From: a virus
Taxonomy: Duplodnaviria; Caudoviricetes
Direction: 5' to 3' (one strand)
Virus record (IMG/VR): IMGVR_UViG_3300036855_000026
Coordinates: 1 to 58,838 of that record
DNA: 58,838 nt
A program made the translations under genes and the position numbers. Positions within the stretch are counted from its first letter, which is position 1, and the number at the start of each line of letters is the position of its first letter. Under the pieces are notes generated by a model, which saw only the letters and a program-made list of their open reading frames with translations, was not told the DNA's origin and did no database searches. Positions 4,293-27,431 of this stretch are shown here, in pieces.

Positions 4293-4601
4293 ATGCCTGG
4301 CCATTGGGTCGGCAGCACGCGACGCACACGACTACCGCACGGCTGGGCAACCGTCACCGTGCCGCGCATCCTCGCGCGAGACCACGGCGTGTGTCACCTG
4401 TGTGGACAGTCCGGGGCGGACACCGTCGACCACATCAGACCAGGCGACGACCACAGTGACGCCAACCTCGCAGCCATCCATGATCGGAACCCCCCGCACT
4501 GCCACCGATTCAAGTCGAGTCGCGAAGGCAACAGCGCCCGGTATCGCTACACAGAGCGACGCCCGCCGGAAGCGCATCCCGGAATACGTGACGCTCCGTG
4601 A
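4293..4601 (+). CDS. HNH endonuclease (packaging-associated)
   Basis: RDHGVCHLCG...VDHI...NL...CHRFKS; precedes terminase. Confidence 0.9.
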   Translation: MPGHWVGSTRRTRLPHGWATVTVPRILARDHGVCHLCGQSGADTVDHIRPGDDHSDANLAAIHDRNPPHCHRFKSSREGNSARYRYTERRPPEAHPGIRDAP

Positions 4602-4856
4602 CTGACGGCCAGTCGATCAAGGCCACAGATTCGGACACGGGGGTCTATACCCCCCGCCGCGGTGATCCACAGTACCGGGAGGTTGGAGGGTCACCATCCG
4701 TATCACTCTGCGTAATCAACTCAGACGTTAGGCCCTCCTCTTTCATGATCCGTCACACCCGGTAACTGCCCCCGTGTCGCGTTCGGCCAGTCCACGGTGG
4801 ACTTAGCGGGTTGATCATTCCAGAACAATTGGACATATATCAGGGAAGTGAGCGCC

Positions 4857-5309
4857 ATGGCTGGTCGTGGTTTCCCCTCCGCCGGTCGTCGGCAGCGCCC
4901 CGACCACCAGGCGACCTTGAACGCGAGCTTTACTGATCTTGCCGACGATGGCGAGGTGCGCGGATTTCCGTTGCCGGACAACGCATTGCCGGGCGGCGAA
5001 GAATGGCACCCGATGACGTTGCAGTGGTGGGACACGTGGCGCCGCTCGCCGCAAGCGCAACGCATGCTGGACACCGACTGGCAAGAGCTTCTGGCCACTG
5101 CCGTGCTCCATCACGCGATCTGGAGTAAAGGACGCTGGGAGCACGCCAGCGAAGTACGGCTACGGGTCGCGAAATTCGGTGCCACCCCCGAGGACCGGAT
5201 GCGGCTCAAGCTCAACGTCACCCTGCCGGAACCGGACGAGGCCCCCATGACCGACGCGTCCGGCGCGGTCACTGACATTTCGTCGAGGCGCTCGCGCTTG
5301 TCGGGGTGA
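4857..5309 (+). CDS. terS: Terminase small subunit
   Basis: MAGRG...WWDTWRRSPQAQ...TDWQEL...EVRLRVAKFGATPEDRMRL; upstream of TerL. Confidence 0.88.
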   Translation: MAGRGFPSAGRRQRPDHQATLNASFTDLADDGEVRGFPLPDNALPGGEEWHPMTLQWWDTWRRSPQAQRMLDTDWQELLATAVLHHAIWSKGRWEHASEVRLRVAKFGATPEDRMRLKLNVTLPEPDEAPMTDASGAVTDISSRRSRLSG

Positions 5310-5313
5310 CCTC

Positions 5314-6954
5314 ATGCCGCACACCGTTGTGCACGCCGACGGACACCACCGAGCCCGGTCACTCGGGTGGCTAGCGCTGGCATGGCTCGAACACTTCTGT
5401 GTACACGGGCCTGGTGACGTGCAAGGCGATCCGGTCGTGCACGGGGACGAACAGAGTGCCTTTGTGGCCGACGCGTACGGGCTGGACGAGGACGGCAGGC
5501 TGTTGTACGACAGCGCTTTCCTGTCCCGCCCCAAAGGCGCGGACAAGTCGGGGCTCGGCGCGCGGCTCGGATTGTTCGAGGCGCTAGGCCCGTGCCGGTT
5601 CGCGGGCTGGGCGAGCGGCGGGGAAACCTACCGCTGGCAAGGTTTCCGCTACACCTACCGTGCCGGTGAGCCGATGGGCCGCGCGATCACCACCCCCTAC
5701 GTCCGGTGCATGGCCACCGAGGAACAACAAACCGGCAACACCTATGACGCCGTGCTGTACAACCTCACAGACGGGCCGTTGGCCGGTACACCCGGTCTCA
5801 GCGCCGGGTTGACCCGCGTCCTGGTGCCCGGCGGCGGCGAGATCACCCCGTCAACGGCGGCGAGTGCGTCCAAAGACGGCGGGAAAGAGACCTTTGTAAT
5901 ATTCGACGAGTCTCATTTGTACAACACCGCCGAGTTGCGGCAGATGTACAAAGTGGTCACCCGGAATTTGCGGAAACGCAAGCGGATCGCGGGTACGTGG
6001 TTCCTGGAAACGACCACGATGTTCGCGCCCGGACACAATTCTGTCGCCGAATCGACGTACGAACTGGCCGAAACGATCAAAGAGGGTCGCGCGCTGCGTT
6101 CGCGGCTGTTTTATGATCACCGGTGGGGCGAGTGTGACGATCTCGCCGACGAACAGGCACTCCGCGCGGCCATTGTGGACGCCTACGGGGACGCGATCGA
6201 GTGGAATGACCTCGATTCGATCGTCAACGAATTCTATGACCCGCGCAGCAACGTCGCCGACAGCCGCCGATATTTCTTGAACGCCCGCACATCGGCATCG
6301 GACGCGTGGTTGGACGCGGCACAGTGGGCGGCATGCACGAAAGCACTGTCCCTGTACGACGATGACACGGTCACGCTCGGGTTTGACGGCAGTGTTCGCG
6401 ATGACTCGACAGCGCTGGTCGCGGCGAGCCTCGAAACCGGGCACGTAGAGGTGCTCGGATGCTGGGAAAAGCCCGATAATCGGGGCGACGACTGGGAAGT
6501 AGACCGGATCGCGGTCGACACCGCCGTCGCCGCCGCGTTCGAGCGTTTCACTGTGGTTGCTTTCTATTGTGATCCGCCGCATTGGCAGGACTATGTGGAC
6601 CGGTGGACACGTGATTTTGGGGATCGTGTCCAGGTGAAAGCGTCGGCGCAGCGACCTTTTGAATGGTGGACGAACCGTCCGAAAGTGATGGTTGATGTGC
6701 TGGCGCGGTTCCATGACGCGGTGATCGACAAGCGTCTGAGCCACGACGGTAGCTCGCTGCTCACGCGGCACGTGCTGAATGCGCGCCGTCGCGCTGGCCG
6801 TACCGGGATCACGATCGCGAAAGAGCACCCGGGCAGTCCCCGGAAAATCGACGCTGCCATGGCCGCTGTCCTCGCCTACGAGGCTAGGGCGGATTCGATC
6901 GCGGCTGGTGTCGGCGTGCGCCGCACAGCGTCCAAACGGCTGTATCGCTTCTGA
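5314..6954 (+). CDS. terL: Terminase large subunit
   Basis: RPKGADKS Walker A-like, FVIFDESH Walker B, LGFDGSVRDDSTALV nuclease motif, KIDAAMAAVLA. Confidence 0.95.
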   Translation: MPHTVVHADGHHRARSLGWLALAWLEHFCVHGPGDVQGDPVVHGDEQSAFVADAYGLDEDGRLLYDSAFLSRPKGADKSGLGARLGLFEALGPCRFAGWASGGETYRWQGFRYTYRAGEPMGRAITTPYVRCMATEEQQTGNTYDAVLYNLTDGPLAGTPGLSAGLTRVLVPGGGEITPSTAASASKDGGKETFVIFDESHLYNTAELRQMYKVVTRNLRKRKRIAGTWFLETTTMFAPGHNSVAESTYELAETIKEGRALRSRLFYDHRWGECDDLADEQALRAAIVDAYGDAIEWNDLDSIVNEFYDPRSNVADSRRYFLNARTSASDAWLDAAQWAACTKALSLYDDDTVTLGFDGSVRDDSTALVAASLETGHVEVLGCWEKPDNRGDDWEVDRIAVDTAVAAAFERFTVVAFYCDPPHWQDYVDRWTRDFGDRVQVKASAQRPFEWWTNRPKVMVDVLARFHDAVIDKRLSHDGSSLLTRHVLNARRRAGRTGITIAKEHPGSPRKIDAAMAAVLAYEARADSIAAGVGVRRTASKRLYRF

Positions 6955-6968: not shown

Positions 6969-7508
6969 GTGGCCGTTGTCGACTTTACCGGCGTCACGGT
7001 CACCGGCACGTACACGGAGCTGGACGGCTCCCCGGCGATCGGCAATGTGACGTTCGCCGCGCAAGTCACCGGCGCCCTGCTCGACTCCACTGCGGACATC
7101 ATCGTGTTGCCGGACGATCTGACGATCACCCTGGACGCCAACGGTTCCCTGAGCGTCATCCTGCTCGCCACCGACGACCCGAGCGTGTCACCGCAAGGGT
7201 TCACATACCTGGTCACCGAGCATATCGGCCGCGCCATGCGCTCCTACTCGATCCCGGTACCGCTAGGCCCACCCCTCGATCTCCGGTCGGTGGCGCCAGT
7301 CGCCCCCGTCATCCAAGGCCCGTTAACGATCGTGACCAGCGTGAACGGCGTCCGGCCCGACATCAACGGCAACGTGACCATTGATGCGCTCGGCGGCCAC
7401 GGTTCCGCCTGGTTTGTCGATGACGGCGCGCCCGGCGATGTGACCGGGGCCGACCCCGGGGACTACTACCTCGACTGGGTGACCGGTGCGATTTATCAAC
7501 TGAGCTGA
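6969..7508 (+). CDS. Putative fibre base/adaptor protein
   Basis: Beta-rich N domain, VTSVNG motif, C-terminal GSAW...GAP...GDYYLD...GAIYQLS knob. Confidence 0.7.
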   Translation: MAVVDFTGVTVTGTYTELDGSPAIGNVTFAAQVTGALLDSTADIIVLPDDLTITLDANGSLSVILLATDDPSVSPQGFTYLVTEHIGRAMRSYSIPVPLGPPLDLRSVAPVAPVIQGPLTIVTSVNGVRPDINGNVTIDALGGHGSAWFVDDGAPGDVTGADPGDYYLDWVTGAIYQLS

Positions 7509-7519
7509 TTGGACTGGAC

Positions 7520-7858
7520 ATGGCTTGGAGTGCAACCGGCGCCAACCTCAAAGGCCCGACCGGTTCGACCGGCGCGGCAGGCTCAGCGGCCACGGTCGCC
7601 GTCGGCACTGTCACCACCCTGGCGGCGGGCGCGAGCGCCACTGTGGCGAACGCAGGCACCAGCGCGGCGGCCGTGCTCAACTTCGGCATCCCGCAAGGGA
7701 CCACCGGTACCACGGGCACGACCGGTACCACGGGGGCGACCGGCGCGCGGGGCTCGTTGTGGTTCTTCGGCTCTGGTGCGCCCGGCACGGTCGCCGGGGC
7801 GGTGGTCGGTGACGTCTACCTCGACACCAGTGCGGGCGCTGTCTACCAGCTCTCCTGA
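7520..7858 (+). CDS. Short collagen-like fibre protein
   Basis: MAWSATGANLKGPTG start, Gly-X-Thr repeats, C-terminal knob ending GAVYQLS. Confidence 0.8.
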   Translation: MAWSATGANLKGPTGSTGAAGSAATVAVGTVTTLAAGASATVANAGTSAAAVLNFGIPQGTTGTTGTTGTTGATGARGSLWFFGSGAPGTVAGAVVGDVYLDTSAGAVYQLS

Positions 7859-7886
7859 CCACCGGACCAGAGGGGCGTAACCGCGC

Positions 7887-10007
7887 ATGGCTTGGACTCA
7901 AACCGGAACGCTCGTGACGACCAGTACGGGAGTGCTGCGCGGCGCACTCGTCTTCGACGTCAAGGACTACGGCGCGGTCGGCAACGGCAGCACCGACGAC
8001 GCCGCCGCGATACAGGCGACCGTCACGGCCGCGACGTCAACCGGTGGCACCGTCTACCTACCGCCGGGCGTCTATAAAGTCCTGACCGCGATCGTGCCCG
8101 CGAACAACATTGCGATCGTCGGCGCGGGGATCGGCAGCACCGTCATTCAACCGGGCGCCGCCGTATGCGCGATCAACTCGGTACTGTCCGGTACGTACGT
8201 CAAGGCGACGCCGCTGACCCGTTTCACGTTGGCGCACTTGACCATCGACGGTGTCAACCAGGGCGCGACGTTCAATGTCGGCTACAAAGGTGTGTTCTGC
8301 CAGTACTTGGCGCAATGCGAGTTCGAGGATTTGACTATCCAGAACTGTATTGCGACCGGGCTCGGGATCGACTTCTTGACGCAGGGTACGGTGATCCACG
8401 CGGTTCGTGCGATCGGCAACGGGCGGCTGAACCAGGGGGGCGGTTCCGGCGCCGGTTCCAACGGGATTGGTGTCGGGACCGGTCAGTACACGGTGGAGGA
8501 TTTCACGGTCTCCGACTGTTACGCGTCCGGCAACGGGCGTTACGGGATCATGATCGAGTCGCAGACCAGCGCGACCAGCTACGGCCCCCGCATCTCGAAC
8601 TGCTTTTCCACCGCCAACTACAACCACGGATACGGTTCAGCGGGGGGAAACGGCGCCATCTGGTCGCATTGCGTCGCCTACGCGAACAACCTGGACGGGT
8701 TCTCGATCGACAACGGCACTGTGGGCGCGACCGCGCAACCGTCCACAGCGGACACTTATGTCGGGTGCGAGGCGATCGGCAACACGCGGTACGGGTTCTC
8801 CTATCAGCCCACCGCGAACAACGCGGTCAGTGTCGCGGGCGGCGGGAACCACACGTATTCGGGCTGCAAAAGCTACGGCAACACGTCCCTGGGCTTCAAC
8901 ATCAACTCGGCCGCGTCGCATCCCTGCTCCGGGTTCACCTATGTGGGCTGTGAGTCGTTTTCCAATGGTGCCAGCGGGTTTCAGGTGCAGGGCGCCAGCA
9001 ACGACATCAAGATCAGTGGTTGCAAGATCAACGCGAACGGGCAGACATCCGGTACCAGCAAGGTCGGTATCCTGATCGGCGCGGCCGTGACCGGGTTGCA
9101 GATCTCTGACAACCGCGTCTATGACGATGGGTCGACGCAGAAACAAGCCTACGGTCTGCAAATCGCGTCCGGGATCACCGTCACCTCGGCGTCGCTGGTC
9201 GGCAACGATCTACGCGGCAACTTGACCGGGTCCGTGAACATGCTCGGTTCCTGGGCGTCGTCCGTAGTGGACGCGAACCCCGGCTATGACCCGCCCGCGA
9301 CACGCAGCACCGGACCAGGCAGCGCGTTCCGGTTGCGCGGCGACACGGGGGCGAACTGGACCACCAATAACCCGGTGCTCGGTCTCGGCGAATACGGCTA
9401 TGAATCGGATACTGGCTGGGCCAAGATCGGCAACGGCACGTCCGCCTGGACCAGTCTCGCGTACGCGGCAGCTCCGTTCGTGAATTCGGTGCCCACCGCG
9501 CGGGCCATGCAATGGTCAGCCGCGACCGGTGACCCGTCGACCCTGCCCAGCACGTTCACCCCGGCCACCGGGGTTATCTACTTCAGCCGCTGCTACGTCG
9601 ACCAGGCGTACACCTCGTGCGCGCACGTGTATTGCAGCACCATCGTTGCCGGGGTCACGCTCACCAATTGCTACATCGGTGTCTATGACGTGGTGACCGG
9701 CAACCAGCTCGGCAAGACGGCCGACATATCCTCGTCTCTGACCACGATCACCGGTCTCCAAGCAAGCCTTGCGGTTCCGATCACCGGTCTTGTCTACGGT
9801 CAAGAGCTGTACCTAGCACTGCTGATCGGATCGTCGAGCACCACGCCCGGTCTGGCCGGTACCCGCGCCAACGGCGGCAATCTGGGCATGACGTCCAACT
9901 ACCGCGTGCAGATCAGCGCGGGCAGCCAGACGACGTTGCCGGGCACCGTGCCGACACTGAGCCTGCCCGGCTCCGGTGCGTTCCCCGGTCTCGGTATCGG
10001 CCCGTAA
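7887..10007 (+). CDS. Right-handed beta-helix (pectate lyase-like) spike/depolymerase with internal Mtd_N-like domain
   Basis: FDVKDYGAVGNGSTDDAAAIQ...GGTVYLPPGVY; Asn/Gly-rich coils; RGDTGANWTTNNPVLGLGEYGYESDTG. Confidence 0.85.
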   Translation: MAWTQTGTLVTTSTGVLRGALVFDVKDYGAVGNGSTDDAAAIQATVTAATSTGGTVYLPPGVYKVLTAIVPANNIAIVGAGIGSTVIQPGAAVCAINSVLSGTYVKATPLTRFTLAHLTIDGVNQGATFNVGYKGVFCQYLAQCEFEDLTIQNCIATGLGIDFLTQGTVIHAVRAIGNGRLNQGGGSGAGSNGIGVGTGQYTVEDFTVSDCYASGNGRYGIMIESQTSATSYGPRISNCFSTANYNHGYGSAGGNGAIWSHCVAYANNLDGFSIDNGTVGATAQPSTADTYVGCEAIGNTRYGFSYQPTANNAVSVAGGGNHTYSGCKSYGNTSLGFNINSAASHPCSGFTYVGCESFSNGASGFQVQGASNDIKISGCKINANGQTSGTSKVGILIGAAVTGLQISDNRVYDDGSTQKQAYGLQIASGITVTSASLVGNDLRGNLTGSVNMLGSWASSVVDANPGYDPPATRSTGPGSAFRLRGDTGANWTTNNPVLGLGEYGYESDTGWAKIGNGTSAWTSLAYAAAPFVNSVPTARAMQWSAATGDPSTLPSTFTPATGVIYFSRCYVDQAYTSCAHVYCSTIVAGVTLTNCYIGVYDVVTGNQLGKTADISSSLTTITGLQASLAVPITGLVYGQELYLALLIGSSSTTPGLAGTRANGGNLGMTSNYRVQISAGSQTTLPGTVPTLSLPGSGAFPGLGIGP

Positions 10008-10074
10008 GCCCGCTGTCCCGTCAGGACCGTGTCCCGAGTGCAATCGAGTACACATCGTGCGGGCGGGGGTAGCC

Positions 10075-11529
10075 GTGCTTGACGATGCGCCCATCGCGGG
10101 CAGCCCCGATTGGTGGCTGATGCGCCTCGGCGCCAGGCTGTCAGTGGAGCGGAAACGCTTTCACCGCTTGGAAAGCTACCACCGCGGAAATCATCCGCTC
10201 CCGTTCGGCAACCGCAAAATGCGTGAGGCGTACAAGCGGCTTCAGAAGCAGTCGCGGAGCAACTACGCGGGCTTGGTCGCGGAAGCGTTGCTAGAGCGCA
10301 TGAAAGTCCTCGGGTTCCGCGCGGGTGGCAGTGCGACAGACGAGGCCGACACGACCGCCTGGTCCTGGTGGCAGGCCAACAAAATGGATGCCAACAGTGG
10401 TCTAGTCCACCGCGCGGCAGTCGTCATGTCGCGCGCCTACGTGATTGTCGGCGACCAGAACGGGAAACCCCTCGTTACGGGGGAAGACCCCCGCCAGGTC
10501 ATCCACGAAAGCGACCCGGCCGACCGCTACCTGTTGCGGGCCGCGTTGAAAGTGTGGACAGACGACGTCGTGAACTGCGAGCTGGCCGTCCTCTACCTAC
10601 CGGACTCGATTCACTACTACAGCTCGATTCCGACCATGACAGCGGCGACCACCGCGCAACTGTGGAAACCCGTCAACTGGGAAATCGACCTGTCCCAAGA
10701 CTTCGCGCCGAATGGCGTTGCTGCCAACGAGTTCGGAGAAGTGCCGGTAGTGCCGTTCACCAACAGGCCCGACCTCGCCGGTAACGGGCTCGGCGAATTC
10801 GAGGACGTCACCGACATCCAAGACCGGATCAACACGGGAATCTTGGACCGGTGCGTGATCAGTGCCATGCAAGCGTATCGGCAACGGTGGGCTAAAGGGA
10901 TCGACCTCGAAGACGCTCACGGCAACCCGCAAACCGTATTCGACCCGGGCGCGGATCTGCTCTGGGCGGTCCCCGACTCCGATGCGGCGTTCGGCGAGTT
11001 CGGCGCGACCGATCTCAGTTCGCTGATCGCGGCGACCGAATCCGATGTCACACACATGGCCGCGATCACCCGTTGCCCGCCGCAATATCTGCTCGGGTCG
11101 ATCAGCAACCTGAGCGGGGATGCGTTGGCGGCAGCAGAAACCGGCCTCGTGTCCAAAGTGGCTGAACGGGAACAAGAGTTCGGCGAGAGCTGGGAAGCTG
11201 TCTACCGTCTCGCAGGCAAAGTCATCGGGGACACGATTCCCGAAGACGCCGAAGTGATCTGGAAAGATCCCCAATTCCGCACCCTAACAGAGATGGCGAG
11301 CGCGTCCGTACAACTCCAATCCGCTGGCGTCCCGTGGCGGACCCGCATGTCCATGCTGGACAAGGGCCCGACCGAGATTGAGCGGATGGAGAAAGAGCGG
11401 ACCCAAGACGCGGCGGTGGCCGCAGCCGCGATGCCCCCACCTGTGGCGCCCACCGCCGCGCCGGGTTCTTCTAGCGGGGCCGTTGTGCCGGTAACGCCCG
11501 TGCCGCCCATCCCTGACGACCAGAGCTGA
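10075..11529 (+). CDS. Portal protein (SPP1 gp6-like)
   Basis: LESYHRGNHPLP, SRSNYAGLV, VPVVPFTNRP, GEFEDVTDIQDRIN, AYRQRW, NLSGDAL. Confidence 0.93.
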   Translation: MLDDAPIAGSPDWWLMRLGARLSVERKRFHRLESYHRGNHPLPFGNRKMREAYKRLQKQSRSNYAGLVAEALLERMKVLGFRAGGSATDEADTTAWSWWQANKMDANSGLVHRAAVVMSRAYVIVGDQNGKPLVTGEDPRQVIHESDPADRYLLRAALKVWTDDVVNCELAVLYLPDSIHYYSSIPTMTAATTAQLWKPVNWEIDLSQDFAPNGVAANEFGEVPVVPFTNRPDLAGNGLGEFEDVTDIQDRINTGILDRCVISAMQAYRQRWAKGIDLEDAHGNPQTVFDPGADLLWAVPDSDAAFGEFGATDLSSLIAATESDVTHMAAITRCPPQYLLGSISNLSGDALAAAETGLVSKVAEREQEFGESWEAVYRLAGKVIGDTIPEDAEVIWKDPQFRTLTEMASASVQLQSAGVPWRTRMSMLDKGPTEIERMEKERTQDAAVAAAAMPPPVAPTAAPGSSSGAVVPVTPVPPIPDDQS

Positions 11530-12897: not shown

Positions 12898-12965
12898 ATT
12901 CGCAGCAGCCATGACGTAGCCACGCCGGGGCGCTCTTGCTGCACACACCCCTAGGGAGTTTCGCC

Positions 12966-13943
12966 GTGGCTGTTTACAATCAGGGCGTTTTCCGTACTGG
13001 CACGTACGGCGGTGGTAGCGGGCCTGATCCGCTGGTGCCGGAACCCGTGTCCGCGCAAATCATTCAAGAACTGCCGAAACAGTCCGCCGTGTTGCAGCGG
13101 GCCCGGCACATCACCATGTCGTCGAAGACTCTCCGTCAGCCCGTGCTCGACGTTCTGCCGGTCGCGTATTTCGTGTCCAGTGGCAACGACACCGGGTTGA
13201 AGCAGACCACCCAGCAGCAGTGGAAGGGTATTACCCTGGTCGCCGAGGAAATCGCGGCGATCGTGCCCATTCCCGAAAGCTATTTGGCGGATGTGGACGT
13301 TCCGATGTGGGGCGAGATCATGCCGCGCCTGGTCGAGGCGATCGGCTCACTGATCGACGCCGCCGCCATCTTCGGCACCGGCCGACCGTCCACCTGGAAC
13401 ACCAGCCTGTACGAAGGTGCTGTCGCGGCAGGCAACACCTACGCGCAGGGTACCGGCGTTGACCTCGCGCAGGACGTCACCCAGGTCGCCCAACTGCTGG
13501 CGCGCGACGGGTATTCGGTCGACGGGTTCATCGTCCGGCCCGGGTTCAACTGGCAATTGGTCGGCATGCGTTCGACCACCCAGAACTACCCGATTTACCA
13601 GCCCGATCTACAGGGCACCCCGGGCGGTTCCCTGTACGGGTATCCGCTCACCGAGATCGACAACGGCTCGTGGGTGGAAACCGAAGCGCAATTGATCGCG
13701 GGCGATTGGGATAATGCGCTGCTCGGTTTGCGACAGGACATCTCGTTCAAGATCTTCACCGAAGGTGTCATTTCCAACGATGCCGGTGGAATCGTGTTGA
13801 ACCTGATGCAACAGGACGCGGTGGCGATGCGGGTAACCATGCGTGTCGCGTTTGCCACGGCGAACCCGGTCACCAAGCTGAACAGCAACGGCGCCACCCG
13901 ATACCCGTTCGCGGTGCTCACTTCGGCGGGCGCTAACAGCTGA
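12966..13943 (+). CDS. Major capsid protein (HK97 fold)
   Basis: LVPEPVSAQII, AEEIAAIVPIPE, AGDW, GLRQDI, NLMQQDAVAMRVTMR; RBS GGGAG. Confidence 0.95.
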   Translation: MAVYNQGVFRTGTYGGGSGPDPLVPEPVSAQIIQELPKQSAVLQRARHITMSSKTLRQPVLDVLPVAYFVSSGNDTGLKQTTQQQWKGITLVAEEIAAIVPIPESYLADVDVPMWGEIMPRLVEAIGSLIDAAAIFGTGRPSTWNTSLYEGAVAAGNTYAQGTGVDLAQDVTQVAQLLARDGYSVDGFIVRPGFNWQLVGMRSTTQNYPIYQPDLQGTPGGSLYGYPLTEIDNGSWVETEAQLIAGDWDNALLGLRQDISFKIFTEGVISNDAGGIVLNLMQQDAVAMRVTMRVAFATANPVTKLNSNGATRYPFAVLTSAGANS

Positions 13944-16830: not shown

Positions 16831-17769
16831 GTGGCCGGTGTTACCTGGGATAGTATTTTTCCTGGAAATGCGTCACTCACTCGCAAGGCCCTTTACGGTT
16901 CCTGTCTCGTTCAGGACTACGTGGCCACCAATGCGTACGCCACCTATTCGCCGTTCGACTCGACTACCGGCCTCCTGTCGTCCACCCTGCTGACCACGGA
17001 TGGCTGGCAGGACATTGGATACCTGGACGAGTCTGGTGTCGAGTTTACGCCGACGTATTCGACCGCTGACACCATGAGTTGGCAGACCCGGCAGGCTCTG
17101 CGCACCGACGTCACCGCCGACACTGAGCAGGCGAAAATCGTCGCGTTGCAGTCCTCGCCGCTGACCGACATGCTTTACAATTCGCTTCCGCTGTCTTCGG
17201 CGGGATTCCTCGGGGCCGCCGGTTATGCGCTGGTGAAACCGAAAGTGCCGCAGACTGTTTACCGGTCGCTGCTATTCCTGGGTGTTGACGGCAGCGCGGG
17301 TAACTACCAATTCGTGGCGACGCTGTACCCACGCGCTTTGATGATCAAACCCGACAAGCAGGACTGGGTTGCGAAAACCGAAATCCAGGTGCCGTTGACG
17401 TTTGAGGCATACCCGGATTCGACAGCGGGATACACCATCAAACGCTTCCGCGACGGCCCCGGGTGGCGTGCGCTCGGCGTCCCCGGTGCGGCGACCGCGC
17501 TCACCATCGGTACCAAGACGTCCACCACGCTTCCGCTCACCTGGACCGCCCCCGCCGGTATCGCGGCCACCAGCTACACCGTGTCCGTTGTGGTCACCTC
17601 AACCGGGCTCCCCGTCGGTGGCGCCACGTTCACGCCCACCAACCCCAACGCGACCACGGCCGCCACGGTCGGCGCGCTCACCACTGCCACCCAATACACG
17701 ATCTCCGTGGTAGCGAACAACAGCGTCGGCAGCGGTCCCGCCGCGACGGTCACCGCCACCACCAGCTGA
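16831..17769 (+). CDS. Major tail protein with C-terminal fibronectin type III domain
   Basis: WQDIGYLDESGV; C-terminal LTWTAP...SYTV...YTISVVANNSVGSGP. Confidence 0.9.
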   Translation: MAGVTWDSIFPGNASLTRKALYGSCLVQDYVATNAYATYSPFDSTTGLLSSTLLTTDGWQDIGYLDESGVEFTPTYSTADTMSWQTRQALRTDVTADTEQAKIVALQSSPLTDMLYNSLPLSSAGFLGAAGYALVKPKVPQTVYRSLLFLGVDGSAGNYQFVATLYPRALMIKPDKQDWVAKTEIQVPLTFEAYPDSTAGYTIKRFRDGPGWRALGVPGAATALTIGTKTSTTLPLTWTAPAGIAATSYTVSVVVTSTGLPVGGATFTPTNPNATTAATVGALTTATQYTISVVANNSVGSGPAATVTATTS

Positions 17770-18633: not shown

Positions 18634-21600
18634 GTGGGTGCTGCTGGAAGTCTTGCCCTGTCCGTCTATCCGGTCGCAACAGACTGGGTCGGGTCCCTCA
18701 CCGCGCAAACCGTCGGGCCCTCCGCTGGTGTCGGCGCGAAAGCGGGCAAGTCCTTTTCGGATGCGTTCGCGGCGTCGTCAACCAAGGGCGGCGCCGCCGC
18801 GTCCACCGCGATCGCCACCGAGGCGCAGACGGCCGCCGACGCGGTTGCGAAAGCGTCGCAAGGTGTCGTCGCCGCGCGGGCCCGTGAGGAAACCGCCGCT
18901 GGGCGGGTCAAGGTTGCTGAGCAGCAACTCGCCGAAGCACGCACGAAGTTCGGTGCGGGAGCGTCCCAAGTCACTGCGGCGGAAGAGAAGTTGGCCGCCG
19001 CGACCCGCAACGTCCAGATTGCGTCGGGGAACTCGGAGCTCGCGAGTACGAAACTCACGCGCGCCCGGCAAGCCGAAGCCGACGCGTCCAAGGTCACCGT
19101 CACCGCGACCGAGTCTGAATCGGCGGCGCTGGGCAAGTGGAAGACGATCGCGTCCGACAGCAATTCCACCATCGGCGGCCTGATCTCCCAGTATGGGGCG
19201 CTGGGCGCCATGGTCGGTGTTGCCGTGGTCGTCGGTATCGGTGTGAAAGCGGTGCAAGCCGCGTCGAACTTTCAGACCAGCCAAGAGCGCCTGGTCACCA
19301 CGGCCGGTGAAACACAGTCGGCGCTGGCCGGTGTCAGCTCAGGCATTCTCGCTATGGCTGGACAGGTCGGCTATACCGCGCAGCAGATCTCCACCGGAAT
19401 GTACACAGTGGAGAGTGCCGGGTTTCACGGGGCCGACGCGTTGACCGTGATGAAAGCGGCGGCGCAAGGGGCCAAAGAGGAAAACGCCGACCTGGGCACC
19501 GTGACGAACGCCGTCACGTCGGTGATCCAAGACTACGGTCTGAAAGCGACCGACGCGGCCATGGTCACATCCAAGCTGGTGACCGCCGTCAGTCTCGGCA
19601 AGACGACTTTTCAAGATCTCACCGGCTCATTGTCTGCGGTGCTCCCGAAAGCGGCGGCGCTCGGGCTGAGCCTGCCCGAAGTGACCGGCGACCTCGCCTC
19701 GATGACGTTGCACGGCATGTCCGCGCAGCAAGCCGCCGACAACCTCGCCGACGCGATCGGACACTTGTCCAACCCGACATTGGGCATGACAAAGGAAATG
19801 GCCTCGCTGGGCCTCACCTCGTCGGAGCTGTCGCAGAAGCTCGGCAAGACCGGCGTGCAAGGCACCATGACCGAGATCGCGACCGCGATCCTGCAACACA
19901 TGGGGCCCGCCGGAACCACACTGTTGAACGCGTTCAATCAGTCCACAGTGGCCGCAACGGACGCCAACACCGAATACAAGGCGCTGCCCCCCGCGTTGCA
20001 GACCATGGCGGACGGATACACCAAGGGCACCACGAGCGTGCTGGCCTGGCGCACCCAGCTTCGGGCGATGCCTGCCGACCAGCAAAACTTGATCACCCAG
20101 TGGCGCGCCGCGCAGGACTCGGCGAACGGATTCAATGCCGCGCTGAAAGGTGGCGGCAATGCCGCCCAAACCTTTTCGCAGGCGCTGCAAAAGGCCACCG
20201 GCGACTCCGCGTCCATGAATGTCGCGTTGATGCTGACCGGCACGAACGGGCCCAACGCGGCGGCGAGCATCCGCAAAGTGGCGAGCGCCAGCACCGAAGC
20301 GGGCGGCAACGTCAAAGGCTGGGCGGACATTCAGCAGACGCTCAACCAGAAGATCGCCGAAATCAAGGACGGCATCGGCGCGTGGGTCACTCAACTGGGC
20401 ACGAAACTTGTTCCCGTCGTGACCGCTGTCGCGAACGGTCTCGCTGGCCTGATTGGGTTCCTGGTCCAAAACCGCGTCTGGGTAGGACTGTTGGCGGCCA
20501 TGGTAGGCGGCCTCGTCGTCGGCCTGGTCGCGTTCAAGATAGCGTCGCTCGCCTCGGCGGCGGCAACGTGGCTCGTGACCACCGCGCAGAAAGCGGCAAC
20601 GCTCGCGTCGATATTCATGACCGATGGTTTCGCCGGACTGAATGCCGTCATGGACGCGAACGTCTTTGTCATTATTGCGTTGGCCATTATCGCATTGGTC
20701 GCCGGGGTGATCTATGCCTACACGCACTTTCAGACCTTCCGGAATATCGTCAACGACATCGCCAACTTTTTCAAGGTCGTCTTTCTCGCCGTGTTTCACG
20801 CGGTCGGCGACGTGATCGATTGGCTTGTGGGCCACTGGAAAATCTTTGCGGCGATCCTCGCGGTCGCGTTCCTGCCGGTCACTGTCGGGGTGGGACTGCT
20901 GGTCCTGTTGATCACCCACCTGCGTCAAGTCGGCGCAGTGTTCGCGGCCGTTGGCGACGCGATAGCTATCGGTGCCAAGGCAATCGGATCCGCGTTCGTG
21001 TGGTTGTGGAACGTGATCTTGCACCCGATCTTTAACGTGATCATGGACATCGTGGTGATCGTCGCCAAGATTCTGATCGCCATTTTCGTGGTGCCCATCG
21101 TCATCGCCGTGCAAGAGCTGGGCAAAGTGTTCGTGTGGCTGTACAACGTCGCCATCAAGCCAGCGTTCGACGCGATCTCGTTTGCTGCCCGGGTCTTCTC
21201 GGCGGCACTTCAAGGCGCGTTCATGATGATCGGCGACGCTGTGTCCTTTGTGTACGATCACACGCTGCTCGTGATCTGGCATGCGATGCAAACCGACTGG
21301 CTGCTTCTCGAAGACGCACTGTCCTACTTGTACAACACGGTGATCAAGCCGATCTGGACGCTGGTCGGCGCGATCTTCAGTTTCGTGTACCAGAACGTCA
21401 TTCGGCCGATCTGGGTAGGCTTGAAGCTCGACTGGATGATCTTGCAAGCGGCGCTGCAATACCTGTACGACAACGTAATCCGGCCCATCTGGCAGGCGAT
21501 CGGCAGCGTGATCGAGACGGTTTATCACTCGGCCATGGAACCGATCTGGGCAGCGTTCAAGCTCGCACTTGCCGGGCTGAAAGACGCATTTAGCGGCGCG

Positions 21601-22833
21601 GTGTCCGGCATCCAGACTGCGTGGAACGTGCTCGAAAAGGTCTTCGGCACACCGATTGAATTCGTCATCCGGACCGTGCTCAACAACGGTCTGATCAAAG
21701 GCATCAACGACCTGTTGAAAGTCGTGGGGATCTCGGGTATTCCGAACGTTCCGGACCCGAACCTGCCCACGTTCGCGACCGGTGGTTACGTGCCCGGCAC
21801 CGGTACCGGGGACACCGTCCACGCGCTACTGACACCCGGCGAAGGTGTGTTGACCGCGAACGCGACGCGCACACTCGGCGGGGCCGCTGGCATCCAGGCG
21901 CTCAACGCCGCATTGGGTGGTAGTGGCGGCGGGCCGACCATGCTGGGTGGCATGCCCGCGTTCGGGCTCGGCGGGCTCGTGTCCGACATCATCAGCGGCA
22001 TTGGCCACGCTGCCTCGTCAGCGTGGAACGCAGTGTCCAATGTGGTCTTGGGTGGCCTGCGCGCCGGGGCGTCCGCGTTCTTTGACGACGTGGTAAAGCC
22101 GCTCGTGAACCTGATCCCGAACGCGCCGGACGGTACCCCCGGGCTGGCGAAACAAACCGTCATGGGGTTCGTGTCCACACTGGAAAACGACCTGTTGACC
22201 TTTTTCGGTGCGAAAGACGCCAGCGCCCCCAAGGGCGGCGGTCCCATCGGCGGGTCTATTCCGTCTGGGTCGCGGCTCGCGATCCTGACGCAAGCACTCG
22301 CCGCCGACGGCGTACCGGCGCCCGCGTGGCCCATGTGGGAGGCAGGACTCAACACCCTGATCACCCGCGAAAGCGGCTGGAACCCCAACGCGGTCAACAA
22401 CACTGACAGCAACGCGAAAGCGGGCCACCCGTCGACCGGCCTCATGCAGACGATCATCGGAACCTTTGAGGCGAACCGGAATCCGGCGTTTCCCGACTCG
22501 ATGACCAACCCGGTAGCGAACGTGGCGGCGGGCGTCAACTACATCATCAAACGCTACGGCTCGATATCCAATGTGCAGCAGGCCAACGCGGCCATGCCAC
22601 CCAAAGGCTATGACGCGGGCGGCATGCTCCCCCCGGGTGTCAGCATGGTCGCGAACATGACCGGACGCCCGGAACCCGTGTTCTCGCCGTCCCAGTGGGA
22701 CACGATGCGCAGCGCCGCCGGTCAGGGCAGCGCGCCGAATACACACAACTATTTCATCACCTCAACCGACCCGGTATCGGTCGCCTACGAACTGGAACGC
22801 CGGGAAGCGGCACACATGCGGGCCAAGCTGTGA
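18634..22833 (+). CDS. Tape measure protein with C-terminal lytic transglycosylase (SLT) domain
   Basis: 1399 aa, Ala-rich, Trp-spaced repeats; RESGWNPNAVN...GLMQTI...NVAAGVNYIIKRYG. Confidence 0.96.
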   Translation: MGAAGSLALSVYPVATDWVGSLTAQTVGPSAGVGAKAGKSFSDAFAASSTKGGAAASTAIATEAQTAADAVAKASQGVVAARAREETAAGRVKVAEQQLAEARTKFGAGASQVTAAEEKLAAATRNVQIASGNSELASTKLTRARQAEADASKVTVTATESESAALGKWKTIASDSNSTIGGLISQYGALGAMVGVAVVVGIGVKAVQAASNFQTSQERLVTTAGETQSALAGVSSGILAMAGQVGYTAQQISTGMYTVESAGFHGADALTVMKAAAQGAKEENADLGTVTNAVTSVIQDYGLKATDAAMVTSKLVTAVSLGKTTFQDLTGSLSAVLPKAAALGLSLPEVTGDLASMTLHGMSAQQAADNLADAIGHLSNPTLGMTKEMASLGLTSSELSQKLGKTGVQGTMTEIATAILQHMGPAGTTLLNAFNQSTVAATDANTEYKALPPALQTMADGYTKGTTSVLAWRTQLRAMPADQQNLITQWRAAQDSANGFNAALKGGGNAAQTFSQALQKATGDSASMNVALMLTGTNGPNAAASIRKVASASTEAGGNVKGWADIQQTLNQKIAEIKDGIGAWVTQLGTKLVPVVTAVANGLAGLIGFLVQNRVWVGLLAAMVGGLVVGLVAFKIASLASAAATWLVTTAQKAATLASIFMTDGFAGLNAVMDANVFVIIALAIIALVAGVIYAYTHFQTFRNIVNDIANFFKVVFLAVFHAVGDVIDWLVGHWKIFAAILAVAFLPVTVGVGLLVLLITHLRQVGAVFAAVGDAIAIGAKAIGSAFVWLWNVILHPIFNVIMDIVVIVAKILIAIFVVPIVIAVQELGKVFVWLYNVAIKPAFDAISFAARVFSAALQGAFMMIGDAVSFVYDHTLLVIWHAMQTDWLLLEDALSYLYNTVIKPIWTLVGAIFSFVYQNVIRPIWVGLKLDWMILQAALQYLYDNVIRPIWQAIGSVIETVYHSAMEPIWAAFKLALAGLKDAFSGAVSGIQTAWNVLEKVFGTPIEFVIRTVLNNGLIKGINDLLKVVGISGIPNVPDPNLPTFATGGYVPGTGTGDTVHALLTPGEGVLTANATRTLGGAAGIQALNAALGGSGGGPTMLGGMPAFGLGGLVSDIISGIGHAASSAWNAVSNVVLGGLRAGASAFFDDVVKPLVNLIPNAPDGTPGLAKQTVMGFVSTLENDLLTFFGAKDASAPKGGGPIGGSIPSGSRLAILTQALAADGVPAPAWPMWEAGLNTLITRESGWNPNAVNNTDSNAKAGHPSTGLMQTIIGTFEANRNPAFPDSMTNPVANVAAGVNYIIKRYGSISNVQQANAAMPPKGYDAGGMLPPGVSMVANMTGRPEPVFSPSQWDTMRSAAGQGSAPNTHNYFITSTDPVSVAYELERREAAHMRAKL

Positions 22834-22845: not shown

Positions 22846-23712
22846 ATGCAATATGACCCGGTTACATACGGGTGCCAGTTCACGATCGGCGGCATCACCA
22901 TCAACGGGTCGACGGACAGCACCGGATGCGACTGGGTGCTCACCAGTGAAACCGGCTGGTTCGCGTCGCCCGCGATCAAAACCGCCCGCGTCGACAAGCC
23001 CGCCGCACGCGGCACCTTTCGTGGCAACGAATTCCGTGGCGCCCGTGTGATCGTTCTGCAATGCACGGTGTCCGCGCCGACGGTCGCCGCGTTGCGGGCC
23101 GCCGAGTACCGCGCGCTGGGTATCTGTCCCAACCCGCACCTGCAATACCCGTTGACCGTGGTCGACGAAACCGGGCTCAGCCTGTACGCGAACGTGGTGC
23201 TGGACGGCGAAATCCTGATCACCCCGATTTCCTGGTCCTCGGCGACCGTCTCAATCCAGCTTGTCGCGCCCGACCCGCGCAAGTTCTCATCGAACCCCAC
23301 CGTCGTGTCCGTGCTGCTCGCTTCGGCCGGTACGGGCGGCATCGCGTATCCGGTGGCCTATCCGGTCTCCTACGGCACTCCCGGGCTCCCCGGGGCGGTG
23401 GTACTCACCAACACCGGCAGCGCCGACTCAGACCCCACGGTGACCCTGACAGGGCCCCTCACCAACCCGAGCCTGATCCGCGCCGACACGGGCGACACAG
23501 TCACCTATCTCGGGACTCTCCTCGCCACCGACACACTCGTGATCGACTTCGGTGCGGGTAGCGCCATGCTCAACGGCATCAACCGGCGCTCGCTGCTGTC
23601 CGCAGGCTGGTTCACGATCCCGGGCTATTCGTCGATCACGATGCTGTTTCGTACCACCAATATCGCCGACACGGGCTCGATGTCCGTGAGCTACGGCAAT
23701 ACCAGCTACTGA
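22846..23712 (+). CDS. Distal tail protein (Dit-like)
   Basis: GWFASP, LVAPDPRKF, YPVAYPVSYG, NTGSAD...GPLTNP. Confidence 0.85.
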   Translation: MQYDPVTYGCQFTIGGITINGSTDSTGCDWVLTSETGWFASPAIKTARVDKPAARGTFRGNEFRGARVIVLQCTVSAPTVAALRAAEYRALGICPNPHLQYPLTVVDETGLSLYANVVLDGEILITPISWSSATVSIQLVAPDPRKFSSNPTVVSVLLASAGTGGIAYPVAYPVSYGTPGLPGAVVLTNTGSADSDPTVTLTGPLTNPSLIRADTGDTVTYLGTLLATDTLVIDFGAGSAMLNGINRRSLLSAGWFTIPGYSSITMLFRTTNIADTGSMSVSYGNTSY

Positions 23713-23727
23713 CACGGAGGCTCTGCG

Positions 23728-24852
23728 ATGGCTTGGGCTGGGACTCCCGTGCAAGCGGCGGGTGCGGTGCCGTTGATGAACGCGGCGGGCACTAGCCCGG
23801 TGAACACGGCCGCGAACTATCGGCAGGCGTTCATCGGGGCACTCGTTGCCCCCGCCCCGGGCGGCCCGATGATATGGCGTTCCGGCGTCATTCCAACGTC
23901 GCTGACCTCCGGTGCCACCATCAACGTCGACCTGTCGGTCAACCAGACCACGACGGCGAGCAGCTCGGTCACCGTCACCCCCGGCAACTGTGTCATCAGC
24001 CGCAGCGGCGCATCCGGCGGCCCCTATGCGATCAGCTTCCCTACCGTGTCCACCTTGGTCAGTGACCCGGCAGCATCCACCAACCCGCGTATCGATGTGG
24101 TCGCGATCCAACTCACCGACGCGGCAATCGGCGACAGCGGCACCCAGGGCGGTCAGCTGATCATCGTCAACGGGGTGGCGGGCGCCATTCCCGCTGTTCC
24201 CGCCGTACCGACCGGCGCCATCGCGATCGCCCAGCTTTACCGGGCCACCAACACAAACCCGGTCGCCACCGCGAACATTACTGACGTGCGGCGCTCTACC
24301 TGTAGCTATGGCGGCATGCGGGCGCTGCTCCCCGGCGACCTCGCCGCCGACGCCGGTTCCTACATCGGGGAGTGGAGTTTCGACGCGGTCACCAGCTTGA
24401 AACGCGGACCGTGCTACTGGGACGGTACGGCCTGGCGCGGCATGCTCACCACGCTGATCTCCTCGACGCTGGTAATCGCCACATCGGCGGCACTGACCTA
24501 CAACAGCGGTACGCCCTACGTCGTGTGCAGTGCCACCGTCGCAGACCCCGGATTCCCGTACCTGCTCAATCTGAGCGGCAAATGTGGCGGGTCGAACATG
24601 ACCGCGCCCTCACAGGCTCTGACGTATCTCACCCTCGACAGCACGGCCGCGACGTCACCACTGTCGATCGCCTGGTCCACGTTCGCGGCAAACACCGTGT
24701 GGGAGTCCAACAATTCGACCACGCACACCGGGAAACTCACGGGCGCGCACACCGCCTACCTGTTGGTGGGAATGAACGCCTCCGGCAACACGGCCAACAT
24801 GTCGGCGAGCGCCAACGACATGCTGCTCAACGTCCAGCTGATTCCCTGGTAG
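23728..24852 (+). CDS. Minor tail protein
   Basis: NPRIDVV...PAVPTGAIAIAQ...NITDVR. Confidence 0.8.
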   Translation: MAWAGTPVQAAGAVPLMNAAGTSPVNTAANYRQAFIGALVAPAPGGPMIWRSGVIPTSLTSGATINVDLSVNQTTTASSSVTVTPGNCVISRSGASGGPYAISFPTVSTLVSDPAASTNPRIDVVAIQLTDAAIGDSGTQGGQLIIVNGVAGAIPAVPAVPTGAIAIAQLYRATNTNPVATANITDVRRSTCSYGGMRALLPGDLAADAGSYIGEWSFDAVTSLKRGPCYWDGTAWRGMLTTLISSTLVIATSAALTYNSGTPYVVCSATVADPGFPYLLNLSGKCGGSNMTAPSQALTYLTLDSTAATSPLSIAWSTFAANTVWESNNSTTHTGKLTGAHTAYLLVGMNASGNTANMSASANDMLLNVQLIPW

Positions 24853-24862
24853 GGCGGCGCGC

Positions 24863-26020
24863 ATGCCACTGCAAGACTGGACGGTGTACGCGTTCGAGAC
24901 CACCACTGGCCGGATCGCGGCAGAAATTCCGTTCATCAACGTGTCCCAGTTCGAGTATGGCCTGAACAATCTGGGTAGCGGCACCGTCACGGTTCCGCTC
25001 GGCGGCAACGGCATGTCCACAGCAGACATTGACGAACTGACTCAACCGTGGCGGTGGTCGTGGGCGGTCTGCTATCGACAGTTCATTTGCCAGGCAGGCC
25101 CGGTGATCAGTGAACAAATGACGGACACCCAGCCGTATACGCAAGTCACGTTCGCGGGAATCTGGAAACTGTTCAGCAAGCGAATCTTGTTTCCGTCGAC
25201 ATTCACGAGCGGCACCAATCCAGCCGTGACTGCCGCCGACACCCAATATACTGGGCTCACCTATTTGCAGATGGCCAGCAACATCGTGGGTACGTCGATG
25301 GCGCGCGGTGCCCTGCCGATCATCCTGCCGCCCACTGATCCGCCTGGTACCAGCACGATCCAATACTACGGCTACGAGATGGATCTTGTCGCGGACATGC
25401 TGTCGAATCTGACAGGACTCGTCGGTGGCCCGGAAATAGAATTCCGTCCGCAATTCAACCCGAGCCAACCGAACTACATTCAATGGGTCATGCGGGTCGG
25501 GTCACCGCGACTCGGTCAGATCGGTTCATCCTGGGCGTTCGACTACGGCCCGCGCGGCTCCATTCAACAAATGGACTTTACCCGCGACGGCAGCCAGATG
25601 ACCTTCAGCGACTACCTGCGCGGGTCCGGCAGCGAATACGATTTGGTGGTCGGCAACGGTCAAGACCTCGGACTAGTGGCCGCCGGTTATCCGCTGCTCG
25701 AAGACGTCAACGGCGACCACACCACCGTGGTTGACCCGGACACCGCGAACTCCTACGCACAACAATGGTGCGACACATACCAATACCCGGTGAACACCCC
25801 CGGGGCGCTGGTCCGGGTCGATGCGCTCGACCTGTCGGGAGCGGTCAGCGGTAGCCCCACCCTCGACCAAATCGCGGTTGGCGACACGGCCGCGTTCACG
25901 ATCCAATCGCACCGCCGGATACCGGACGGGACATACACCTACCGGATTGTGCAAATCGACAACGGTTCGTCATACGACAACGTCAAGCTCACGTTGCAGC
26001 CGGTGACGGGGATGGGGTGA
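24863..26020 (+). CDS. Minor tail/baseplate hub protein
   Basis: TTGRIAAEIP, LNNLGSG, GGPEIEFRP, GYPLLE. Confidence 0.8.
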   Translation: MPLQDWTVYAFETTTGRIAAEIPFINVSQFEYGLNNLGSGTVTVPLGGNGMSTADIDELTQPWRWSWAVCYRQFICQAGPVISEQMTDTQPYTQVTFAGIWKLFSKRILFPSTFTSGTNPAVTAADTQYTGLTYLQMASNIVGTSMARGALPIILPPTDPPGTSTIQYYGYEMDLVADMLSNLTGLVGGPEIEFRPQFNPSQPNYIQWVMRVGSPRLGQIGSSWAFDYGPRGSIQQMDFTRDGSQMTFSDYLRGSGSEYDLVVGNGQDLGLVAAGYPLLEDVNGDHTTVVDPDTANSYAQQWCDTYQYPVNTPGALVRVDALDLSGAVSGSPTLDQIAVGDTAAFTIQSHRRIPDGTYTYRIVQIDNGSSYDNVKLTLQPVTGMG

Positions 26021-26880
26021 CCGTGACCGCTCCCGGATTCGTGCCGCGCCCCGACCGCACCATTGTGGACCGTATCGCGAAGATCGAGGCGCGTTTGCGG
26101 TCGATGCAACAGAACACGGCCGGTGCCACCACGGCCAGTGGCGGCGCGGCACTGTCCAACCTGGCCGCGATCCCGGTAGGCCCGCTCGGGTCGGCGGGCG
26201 CGGCACTCACCGCATCGCGCAGCGACCACGTGCACACGTCGGCACTCGCCGCACAGCAAGACGTCACTGTGTCCGCGCCGGTCGCGGGAAACGTGCTGGC
26301 CTACAGCGGGACCGCGTGGGCGAACACGCCCGCCACGCTCGCGGCTGGCTCCGACGTGACGATCACGACGCCCGTCACGGGGCAAGCGCTGGTCTACAAC
26401 GGGTCGAAGTGGGCGAACACCACGCCTGCCGTCGGCACCCTGAACGGGCAAGTCCTGCTCGGCGCCGGGCTCGCCGGGACGCTCGGCACCGCCATCTACA
26501 CGACCAGTGGCACCGTCGAGATGAACATGCCGAAGCTGGCATTGGCGAGCGTTCCCGTCGTGAGTGGACGCGCCTATGTGTTTCACCTGTACATCTATGG
26601 AAACCCGTCCGTGACGGCCACCGACTATTGGTTTCTGGTGCGGACCGCGACCGCGTTGACCGGAACGAACATCCTGCGCTGGAACGCATACGCGATGGGT
26701 GTTGCCGGATTCGACGAGATGGCCGGATATCTCGCGCCCTGGATTGCCACGTCCACCGGCAACGTGAACTTCTACCTGAGCGCCGTCCAAAAAGCCGGAA
26801 GCGGCGCCTTGAACATCTGCGCAGGTAGCGCGTTCTGGGTTGCCGACGGTGGCGCCGCAACCCAATGGAGCTACACGTAA
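26017..26880 (+). CDS. Tail fibre-like protein
   Basis: N-terminal coiled coil, ASRSDHVH, two ~30-aa DVT...G..L.Y.G..WANT repeats. Confidence 0.8.
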   Translation: MTVTAPGFVPRPDRTIVDRIAKIEARLRSMQQNTAGATTASGGAALSNLAAIPVGPLGSAGAALTASRSDHVHTSALAAQQDVTVSAPVAGNVLAYSGTAWANTPATLAAGSDVTITTPVTGQALVYNGSKWANTTPAVGTLNGQVLLGAGLAGTLGTAIYTTSGTVEMNMPKLALASVPVVSGRAYVFHLYIYGNPSVTATDYWFLVRTATALTGTNILRWNAYAMGVAGFDEMAGYLAPWIATSTGNVNFYLSAVQKAGSGALNICAGSAFWVADGGAATQWSYT

Positions 26881-26901
26881 GCAACGAAAGGGTTCCGTCC
26901 C

Positions 26902-27225: not shown

Positions 27226-27431
27226 CGCGAGCGCTGGTCCTGGTGGCGATGGCGGCCATCCTCGGATCGGCGACCGCCGCGTTCGTCGCGGTCGTCACGA
27301 CCATGGTTGTCGGCCGCCGGGTCGCCGACGCTGACGACGAATCGGGTCTCAACATCATGGTCGAGGACGAGATATCACCGTCCACACGGCACGACTCGCA
27401 CGGCTTTTTCGCATCCGAAAAGGACCAGTAA
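27222..27431 (+). CDS. Small single-TM protein
   Basis: Hydrophobic N-terminus, acidic tail; GTGA coupling. Confidence 0.55.
   Translation: MTRALVLVAMAAILGSATAAFVAVVTTMVVGRRVADADDESGLNIMVEDEISPSTRHDSHGFFASEKDQ

Follow-up and report, generated by a model that had tools for sequence, protein, structure and literature searches.

Three consecutive genes of the virus record IMGVR_UViG_3300036855_000026 have one small β-module cut at their borders: twice in succession the upstream gene stops after the third of four strands, and the next gene opens with a candidate for the fourth. The genes, here called A, B and C, are wedged between those for the terminase large subunit (terL) and the portal protein in the 58,838-bp record, which was analysed over its full length and is referred to as the window. 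On balance, and with real reservations, the three proteins are best explained as subunits of one trimeric siphovirus fibre, connected end to end via split modules. A would dock on the virion as the anchor, B would form a short collagen-like linker between A and C, and C would be the β-helix tailspike tip, the three being separate translation products connected non-covalently. Each joint would consist of a four-stranded β-module of about 45 residues that is cut in the turn between strands 3 and 4. The upstream protein would give strands 1 to 3 (…GDxYLDxxxGxxYQLS, the acceptor) and the M-A-W… start of the next protein would give strand 4 (the donor), its invariant Trp entering the module core. 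The features concerned, all on the + strand, are as follows.

6969..7508, +: gene A, open reading frame (ORF) of 179 amino acids (aa) with a GTG start; proposed anchor subunit of the fibre
6969..7310, +: A residues ~1-114, putative anchor (virion-attachment) domain; phrog_14726 'tail fiber protein' N-terminus, E 1.8e-12
7392..7505, +: A residues ~142-179, acceptor half-module (strands 1-3), ending YQLS; unsplit profile positions 3-39
7509..7519, +: 11-nucleotide (nt) gap from the A stop to the B start; frame 0 to frame 2
7520..7858, +: gene B, ORF of 112 aa; proposed linker subunit
7520..7564, +: B residues 1-15 (MAWSATGANLKGPTG), donor strand equivalent to module strand 4 by profile match
7736..7855, +: B residues ~73-112, acceptor half-module by profile match, ending YQLS
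7859..7886, +: 28-nt gap containing GAGGGG; frame 2 to frame 0
7887..10007, +: gene C, ORF of 706 aa with Pfam matches; proposed tip subunit (tailspike-like)
7887..7931, +: C residues 1-15 (MAWTQTGTLVTTSTG), putative donor strand without collagen-like continuation
7953..9236, +: C residues 23-450, right-handed β-helix, pectate-lyase-like, by Pfam (putative glycan depolymerase)
9330..9443, +: C residues 482-519, Mtd_N / hyaluronidase-type fibre motif (PF18454, E 1.4e-7)
9525..9962, +: C residues 547-692, distal domain with no fold assigned; 35.5% identity to a pSt2308 hypothetical protein

The ORFs, their peptide ends, the gaps of 11 and 28 nt and the change of frame (A, B and C lie in frames 0, 2 and 0) are as the original prediction, made from the letters of the window, described them. 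A ends in …GSAWFVDDGAPGDVTGADPGDYYLDWVTGAIYQLS and B in …GSLWFFGSGAPGTVAGAVVGDVYLDTSAGAVYQLS; counted on the translations, their 35-aa tails are identical at 22 of 35 ungapped positions, and both fit GDxYLDxxxGAxYQLS-stop. B and C open with MAW, the C N-terminus reading MAWTQTGTL. Across all six frames of the window (58.8 kb), a regular expression for the knob core matched twice, at the C-termini of A and of B. Each of the two chains terminates at a stop codon after strand 3, so that the module is not continuous in one chain. Between its donor head and its acceptor tail, B consists of Gly-X-Y stretches and a small central domain. The GAGGGG in the gap between B and C, read by eye, is a possible ribosome-binding site.

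The uncut form of the module, which the original prediction had described as a one-chain knob of the type GDxYLD…W…GNLKGP, is real: 29 distinct unsplit modules were taken from the fetched loci, and the alignment of 27 of them (A2) gives the consensus GSxWYxGxGAPGTIxGxxxGDxYLNTxxGDVYxxxxGxWxLxGNIKGPxG, in which W44 is invariant. It is about 45 aa long and sits between collagen-like Gly-X-Y segments in related fibres. AlphaFold2, run on A2, predicted four strands (9-12, 27-30, 35-40 and 43-49) with a mean predicted local distance difference test score (pLDDT) of 89 and a predicted template modelling score (pTM) of 0.72. Pfam has no family of the module's own, the only hits on unsplit modules being Collagen and a weak SH3_19.

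The nearest solved relatives of the module, both marginal, are the SGIV anchor protein VP88 (8HIF chain y4; profile E 0.0018, Foldseek E 0.013, TMq 0.61) and Geobacillus virus E2 (GVE2) ORF18 (7CHU; 7chu_A TMq 0.60, root-mean-square deviation 2.4 over 51 columns). These are single-chain copies of the module in otherwise unrelated proteins and are uninformative about the split. The accessible part of PMC10090177 describes a crown domain of VP88 and does not describe this module there; a literature search on GVE2 ORF18 returned nothing useful. Three other names for the fold were set aside. SH3_19 reached 29.4 bits on unsplit modules, which was judged too weak, as was the collagen XVIII trimerisation domain (Foldseek E above 2), and for CBM_5_12 (PF02839) the alignment places the family in a separate insert in the middle of linkers and not in the knob.

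That the module is divided exactly before its last strand, as first proposed, is borne out by the register of the two halves. A profile hidden Markov model of the unsplit module (55 positions) was searched separately against the tails and the heads of split pairs. All 62 acceptor tails match from about profile position 2 to positions 37-41, and 60 of 62 donor heads begin at profile position 43 or 44, from their own residue 2 or 3. The invariant W44 of unsplit modules is the W of the M-x-W starts. In the window the A tail covers profile positions 3-39 (35.1 bits, E 7e-11), the B tail positions 1-39 (60.8 bits; in another profile search 1-40, E 1.9e-17), and residues 2-15 of the B head lie on positions 43-55 (11.7 bits, E 0.0015). 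Thus the halves tile one fold from which the turn between strands 3 and 4 alone is missing; the strand positions and the profile coverage of the halves together place the cut in the β3-β4 turn.

Conservation was followed across 84 loci, comprising 80 viral contigs, the window, Nocardia phage NBR1 and two prophages. Because a B-type query was used to collect the loci, some of which nearly duplicate others, they are not independent samples; independent of the query are the findings that the gene upstream ends in an acceptor and the gene downstream starts with a donor. Lack of conservation in other phages had been named beforehand as a reason to give up the idea of a split module, but the arrangement proved to be conserved. 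At least one open acceptor end, and hence a junction, was found at 46 of the 84 loci, one at 11 loci, two at 32 and three at three. Since 32 of 46 loci have exactly two junctions, the anchor-linker-tip layout of the window is the commonest. An M-x-W start lies no more than 20 nt beyond 61 of the 75 distinct open acceptor ends, and the continuation is W…GNIKG-like in 57 of these 61. The 61 gaps measure -1 to 18 nt, with a median of 6, and all three relative frames occur (30, 20 and 11 junctions), the gap being a multiple of three in 30. ATG is the start codon before x-W in 56 of 61. The residue between M and W is Ala in 44 cases, Pro in 11, Gly in three, and Ser and Val in one each; one further 'Asp' is an artefact at gene A of the window, the true start being the ATG 11 nt downstream.

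The pairing of an acceptor with a following M-x-W start is far above chance. Among open frames of at least 80 codons on the + strand of the 84 loci, such a start lies within 20 nt of 65 of the 78 ends that carry the acceptor motif, compared with 81 of 2348 other ends (Fisher p 6.5e-73). The ORFs downstream of junctions range from 36 to 814 codons, and the tips differ widely between loci. At one locus (L039 5341-7604; also L041 and L044) two successive MAW genes of 119 and 358 aa share their first 12 residues and may encode alternative tips.

The cultured Nocardia phage NBR1 carries the same chain (L082 5480-7698): Orf16 (96 aa) ends in …GDYYIDTSTGTIYRLGD, Orf17 (187 aa) begins MAWNVTGNIQGP and ends …GDVYLLS, and Orf18 (125 aa) begins MAWDKV…, all three being annotated as hypothetical. 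The chain and the small genes next to it have the major tail protein on one side and the tape measure region on the other, another non-standard location for fibre genes. Prophages of Corynebacterium falsenii and of an Alcaligenaceae genome also carry a split chain. The class of proposed split-module fibres spans viral contigs and prophages of Actinomycetota and Proteobacteria. Among bacterial contigs taken at one genome per species, the unsplit form is dominant (100, versus four split). A search for near-identical phage DNA, tblastn of B against phages and a search of viral contigs for close relatives of A returned no match.

Judged from its sequence, B belongs to a widespread linker family in which both ends are conserved and the middles vary. 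The B query returned 97 database relatives, about 40 of which are small proteins (75-196 aa) that, by reading of their ends, have an M-x-W start and a knob-motif end, typically M-A-W-x-x-x-G-N-I-K-G-P and GDxYLDTxxGxVYxLS. One of them (P0006) has a complete internal module in addition to the terminal cut one. The Gly-X-Y runs of B itself are short (GPTGSTGAAG; GTTGTTGTTGTTGATGARG), and its Pfam Collagen score of 15.9 bits lies below the cut-off of 27.2, which relatives pass. Middle inserts in the family (P0017, P0020-P0025, P0031, P0040 and others) are CBM_5_12-like (PF02839), Gly-X-Y only, or a VAVGTVTTL unit; the last, VAVGTVTTLxxGxxATVTNxGTxxAAVLNFGIPQG, occurs in B of the window.

Acceptors form two consistent sequence classes, anchor-end and linker-end, whereas donor heads hardly differ between junctions. 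At L047 (5314-7428) and L087 (the Corynebacterium falsenii prophage) the linker and tip donors share their first eight residues, MAWVQTGN, and the acceptors are of different classes. A donor specificity residing in Pro at position 2 was considered (one of 24 first junctions, six of 26 later ones) and dropped because the difference is too small.

The contact between the halves was modelled as a complex of three copies of A residues 100-179 with three copies of B, using alignments made for this analysis. The interaction prediction score from aligned errors (ipSAE), in a job unlike those on which the tool was calibrated, was 0.48 (runs 0.44, 0.50 and 0.48), compared with 0.00 for the best of three controls. 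The partner pLDDT was at least 84, and runs agreed in at least 92% of contacts. Of 80 solved complexes, 58 reached the mark of the tool, as did two of 110 mismatched pairs; a score of 0.60 or under was given by only seven of those 80 solved complexes and by both of the passing mismatches. A minimal linker of 82 aa (P0010) was modelled as an AlphaFold2 monomer, which has residues 3-9 in a strand state (pLDDT of the block 69). The only other strands (51-54, 69-72 and 77-81, pLDDT about 80) lie in the C-terminal half-module, and the Gly-X-Y part is disordered. Read from its secondary structure, this model suggests that the head pairs with the tail. That the MAW strand completes the knob is weakly supported: the register fits, and the complex scores 0.48 against 0.00, a result that the tool grades as weak. 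We infer the physical joints between A and B and between B and C on the good foundation of register and conservation, with weak backing from modelling.

Several observations weigh against a fibre joined by split modules. The score of the A:B complex amounts to 'weak' support and came with no contact map, and the mean pLDDT of the P0010 model is low (59.9). Residues 2-9 of C fall on profile positions 43-50 with 2.3 bits only (E 1.3), which is not significant alone; the putative donor head of C is assigned from its M-A-W and its place next to an acceptor end. Of the open acceptor ends, 14 of 75 have no M-x-W start within 20 nt, some of them at the ends of loci. At least three distinct junctions (L002, L023 and L039, the last the same as L041 and L044) are capped, that is, the upstream module is complete and includes its Trp strand, and these upstream proteins are nonetheless followed by MAW…GNIKGP genes. 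Because capped junctions exist, a vacancy is not always needed; the head may dock on complete modules too, or else these proteins have another site of attachment. Tail fibre genes are not usually located between terL and portal, and no result here places the docking site of A.

The capped junctions, with MAW genes following complete modules, count in favour of a reading in which the conserved ends are only recombination or cassette borders and A, B and C, not bound to each other through them, attach to the virion individually or act separately. Phage fibres are known to exchange modules by way of conserved flanks, and the weak support for the complex is in keeping with such a reading. We nevertheless consider it unlikely, since the halves tile a single fold with the invariant core Trp on the donor side, the order of acceptor gene then donor gene is near-constant, and B (112 aa), like many linkers of 75-82 aa, has no other domain able to dock on the virion. 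That A, B and C are one gene, expressed by recoding or broken by sequencing error or decay, is hardly credible. In principle, read-through could fuse the gene pairs at the 30 of 61 junctions whose gap is a multiple of three, and if the TGA of A is read through, the resulting LDWTW falls on the Trp position of the profile. However, the gap is not a multiple of three at the other 31 junctions, the frames in the window are 0, 2 and 0, and the ATG directly before x-W is conserved (56 of 61). The position of the stop is kept in 81%-identical homologues from independent assemblies, in a cultured phage and in bacterial genomes. The read-through frame of A (window 7506-7880) is 123 codons of Pro/Arg-rich text, and LDWTW… was put down to chance, the genome being high in GC, and to the overlap of ATGG with TGG.

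The original prediction was that B, having both kinds of end, could form head-to-tail polymers (A-B-B-…-C) and so pilus-like fibres of variable length. No evidence for a self-extending polymer was obtained, and we give the idea little credence. At L005 a linker acceptor does meet the donor of a different linker gene, the head of P0010 is modelled as a strand for which the tail module of the same protein is the sole partner, and the identical first eight residues of the L047/L087 donors mean that the strand alone may not fix the order of subunits. Against this, 32 of the 46 loci with junctions have two, which is one linker gene, and the two acceptor classes could impose order. The third junction of L005, one of the three loci with three, belongs to a second, different linker gene, which suggests that length is set by gene number. 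The prevalence of a single linker gene and the second linker gene of L005 thus mildly favour a genetically fixed fibre length. The shared MAWVQTGN donors keep promiscuous or self-extending assembly alive without supporting it. It is improbable that the split module serves phage fibres universally as a plug and socket, with donors promiscuous to the extent that the anchor takes linker or tip, linkers add to linkers, and one phage makes fibres of mixed lengths and tips through trimers that complement each other's strands head to tail, as in pili.

The N-domain of A is 36% identical to the N-terminus of the Streptomyces phage Samy gp28 tail fibre and also matches Samora gp18; Tubberson and SoJo gp21 are further N-domain matches in the similarity listing. 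Samy gp28 and Samora gp18 (660 aa), encoded at the end of the tail module, have in one chain an A-like N-domain, then unsplit modules, then a tip. In an Actinokineospora protein (P0101) the N-domain of A is fused to a different tip, and homologues of A at 81% identity (P0099 and P0100) have the same length and the same end. In A there was no match to any Pfam family, a T4gp10-like domain included, at E up to 1.

A fibre decorating the head or neck, the location first suggested, is rather unlikely. It would suit the gene position between terL and portal, and in NBR1, too, the chain is found away from the distal tail module, flanked by the major tail protein and tape measure genes. The homology of the A N-domain to the N-termini of tail fibres and minor tail proteins (Samy gp28, Samora gp18, Tubberson and SoJo gp21) argues against it, as do the label of phrog_14726 (tail fiber) and the order of genes at L047. 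There the genes upstream of the three-gene chain are those for the tape measure, two minor tail proteins and a virion structural protein, and the endolysin gene lies downstream. A-B-C is most likely a tail fibre.

The tip proves to be a β-helix protein, as had been proposed, both families concerned lying above their cut-offs: PF12708 at residues 23-227 (53.3 bits, cut-off 27, E 4.2e-14) and PF13229 at residues 310-450 (29.4 bits, cut-off 25.9, E 7.4e-7). The motif at 482-519 has matches in Arthrobacter and Gordonia phage minor tail proteins and esterases. The match of the distal domain (35.5% identity) is a hypothetical protein of Streptomyces phage pSt2308. The best phage match of C as a whole is a hypothetical protein at 26.8% identity, and no close characterised homologue was among the matches. 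From these domains C probably cleaves a host surface glycan, and it may itself be a two-part protein, an enzyme with a separate binding domain. Domain content therefore supports the roles originally given to the three proteins, A as anchor, B as linker with both kinds of end, and C as β-helix tip with a donor only.

The closest known counterparts are the single-chain fibres Samora gp18 and Samy gp28, which share the anchor domain of A, have the knob between Gly-X-Y stretches and carry a variable tip. In those proteins the module is continuous, whereas here it is cut at two gene borders, so that one chain would become a three-protein fibre. The accessible part of PMC5537660 describes the T4 long tail fibre (gp34-gp35-gp36-gp37) as encoded by neighbouring genes, with segments joined non-covalently. 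The likeness lies in consecutive fibre segments from neighbouring genes, which in the present case is a deduction from the genes. No gp34, gp35, gp36 or gp37 family is among the Pfam or PHROG matches of A, B and C. One protein of the T4 long tail fibre, the hinge, is monomeric, and we know of no description of the joints of that fibre as one small domain split between partners.

Donor-strand complementation is established for chaperone-usher pili. Strand complementation is also reported, in the accessible part of PMC12357932, for endospore appendages (F-ENA). The likeness to both is that the N-terminal strand of the next subunit would complete the fold of the previous one and that a two-ended subunit could form a chain. 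Chaperone-usher pilins are immunoglobulin-like, whereas the present unit has about 45 aa and four strands, and its best fold matches (8hif_y4 and 7chu_A) are not pilins. Partners here would be trimers on a common axis with a fixed gene order of anchor, linker and tip. No chaperone or usher takes part in the proposed assembly as judged from the neighbouring genes, terL and portal, no search with chaperone or usher models having been made. The analogy with pili would accordingly hold for the mechanism only, the fold and the machinery being different.

Sets of receptor-binding proteins of the anchor-branch type in Klebsiella and E. coli phages combine a short anchor with exchangeable depolymerase tailspikes that have N-terminal docking peptides, and use T4gp10-like docking domains. 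No such domain was found by Pfam in A, and the proposed joint, a split module, would run along the axis of the fibre. Fibres encoded by several genes and joined non-covalently, and sets of an anchor with exchangeable tailspikes, are thus already established. What appears to be new is the division of one small fold between consecutive fibre proteins at a hairpin turn, cut in some homologues and uncut in others. No description of such a split joint was found in the literature searched, which leaves subscription journals and supplements outside.

A likely benefit of a standard joint is that anchors, linkers and tips could be exchanged between phages. If the proposed assembly is correct, it explains a class of fibre built from separately encoded, exchangeable anchors, linkers and tips. 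It would also bring to phage assembly a structural principle so far mainly known from bacterial pili, a small fold shared by two trimers and cut at a hairpin turn, and would provide a natural standard connector for engineering receptor-binding proteins. Annotation would gain as well, as many such small genes are unnamed or 'hypothetical', among them NBR1 Orf16-18.

The window represents a complete virus record; it has direct terminal repeats and a G+C content of about 64-66%, and family scans show that it encodes the usual siphovirus gene set. The genes that flank the fibre genes, and other landmarks, are as follows.

5314..6954, +: terL (terminase large subunit), left flank, outside the fibre genes; phrog_9, E 5.6e-72
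9976..11529, +: portal protein, right flank, outside the fibre genes; phrog_104, E 1.1e-119
12936-13943: major head protein
16831-17769: major tail protein
18634-22833: 1399-aa ORF at the tape-measure position, assigned by place and not by family match
22846-28407: Dit-like protein, more minor tail proteins and endolysin

In addition, an ORF at 4293-4601 contains, by eye, an HNH-endonuclease-like motif (…CHLCGQSGADTVDHIRPGDDHSDANLAAIHDRNPPHCH…). Shortly downstream of it come the presumed small terminase gene (4848-5309) and terL, an order often seen among phage packaging genes.

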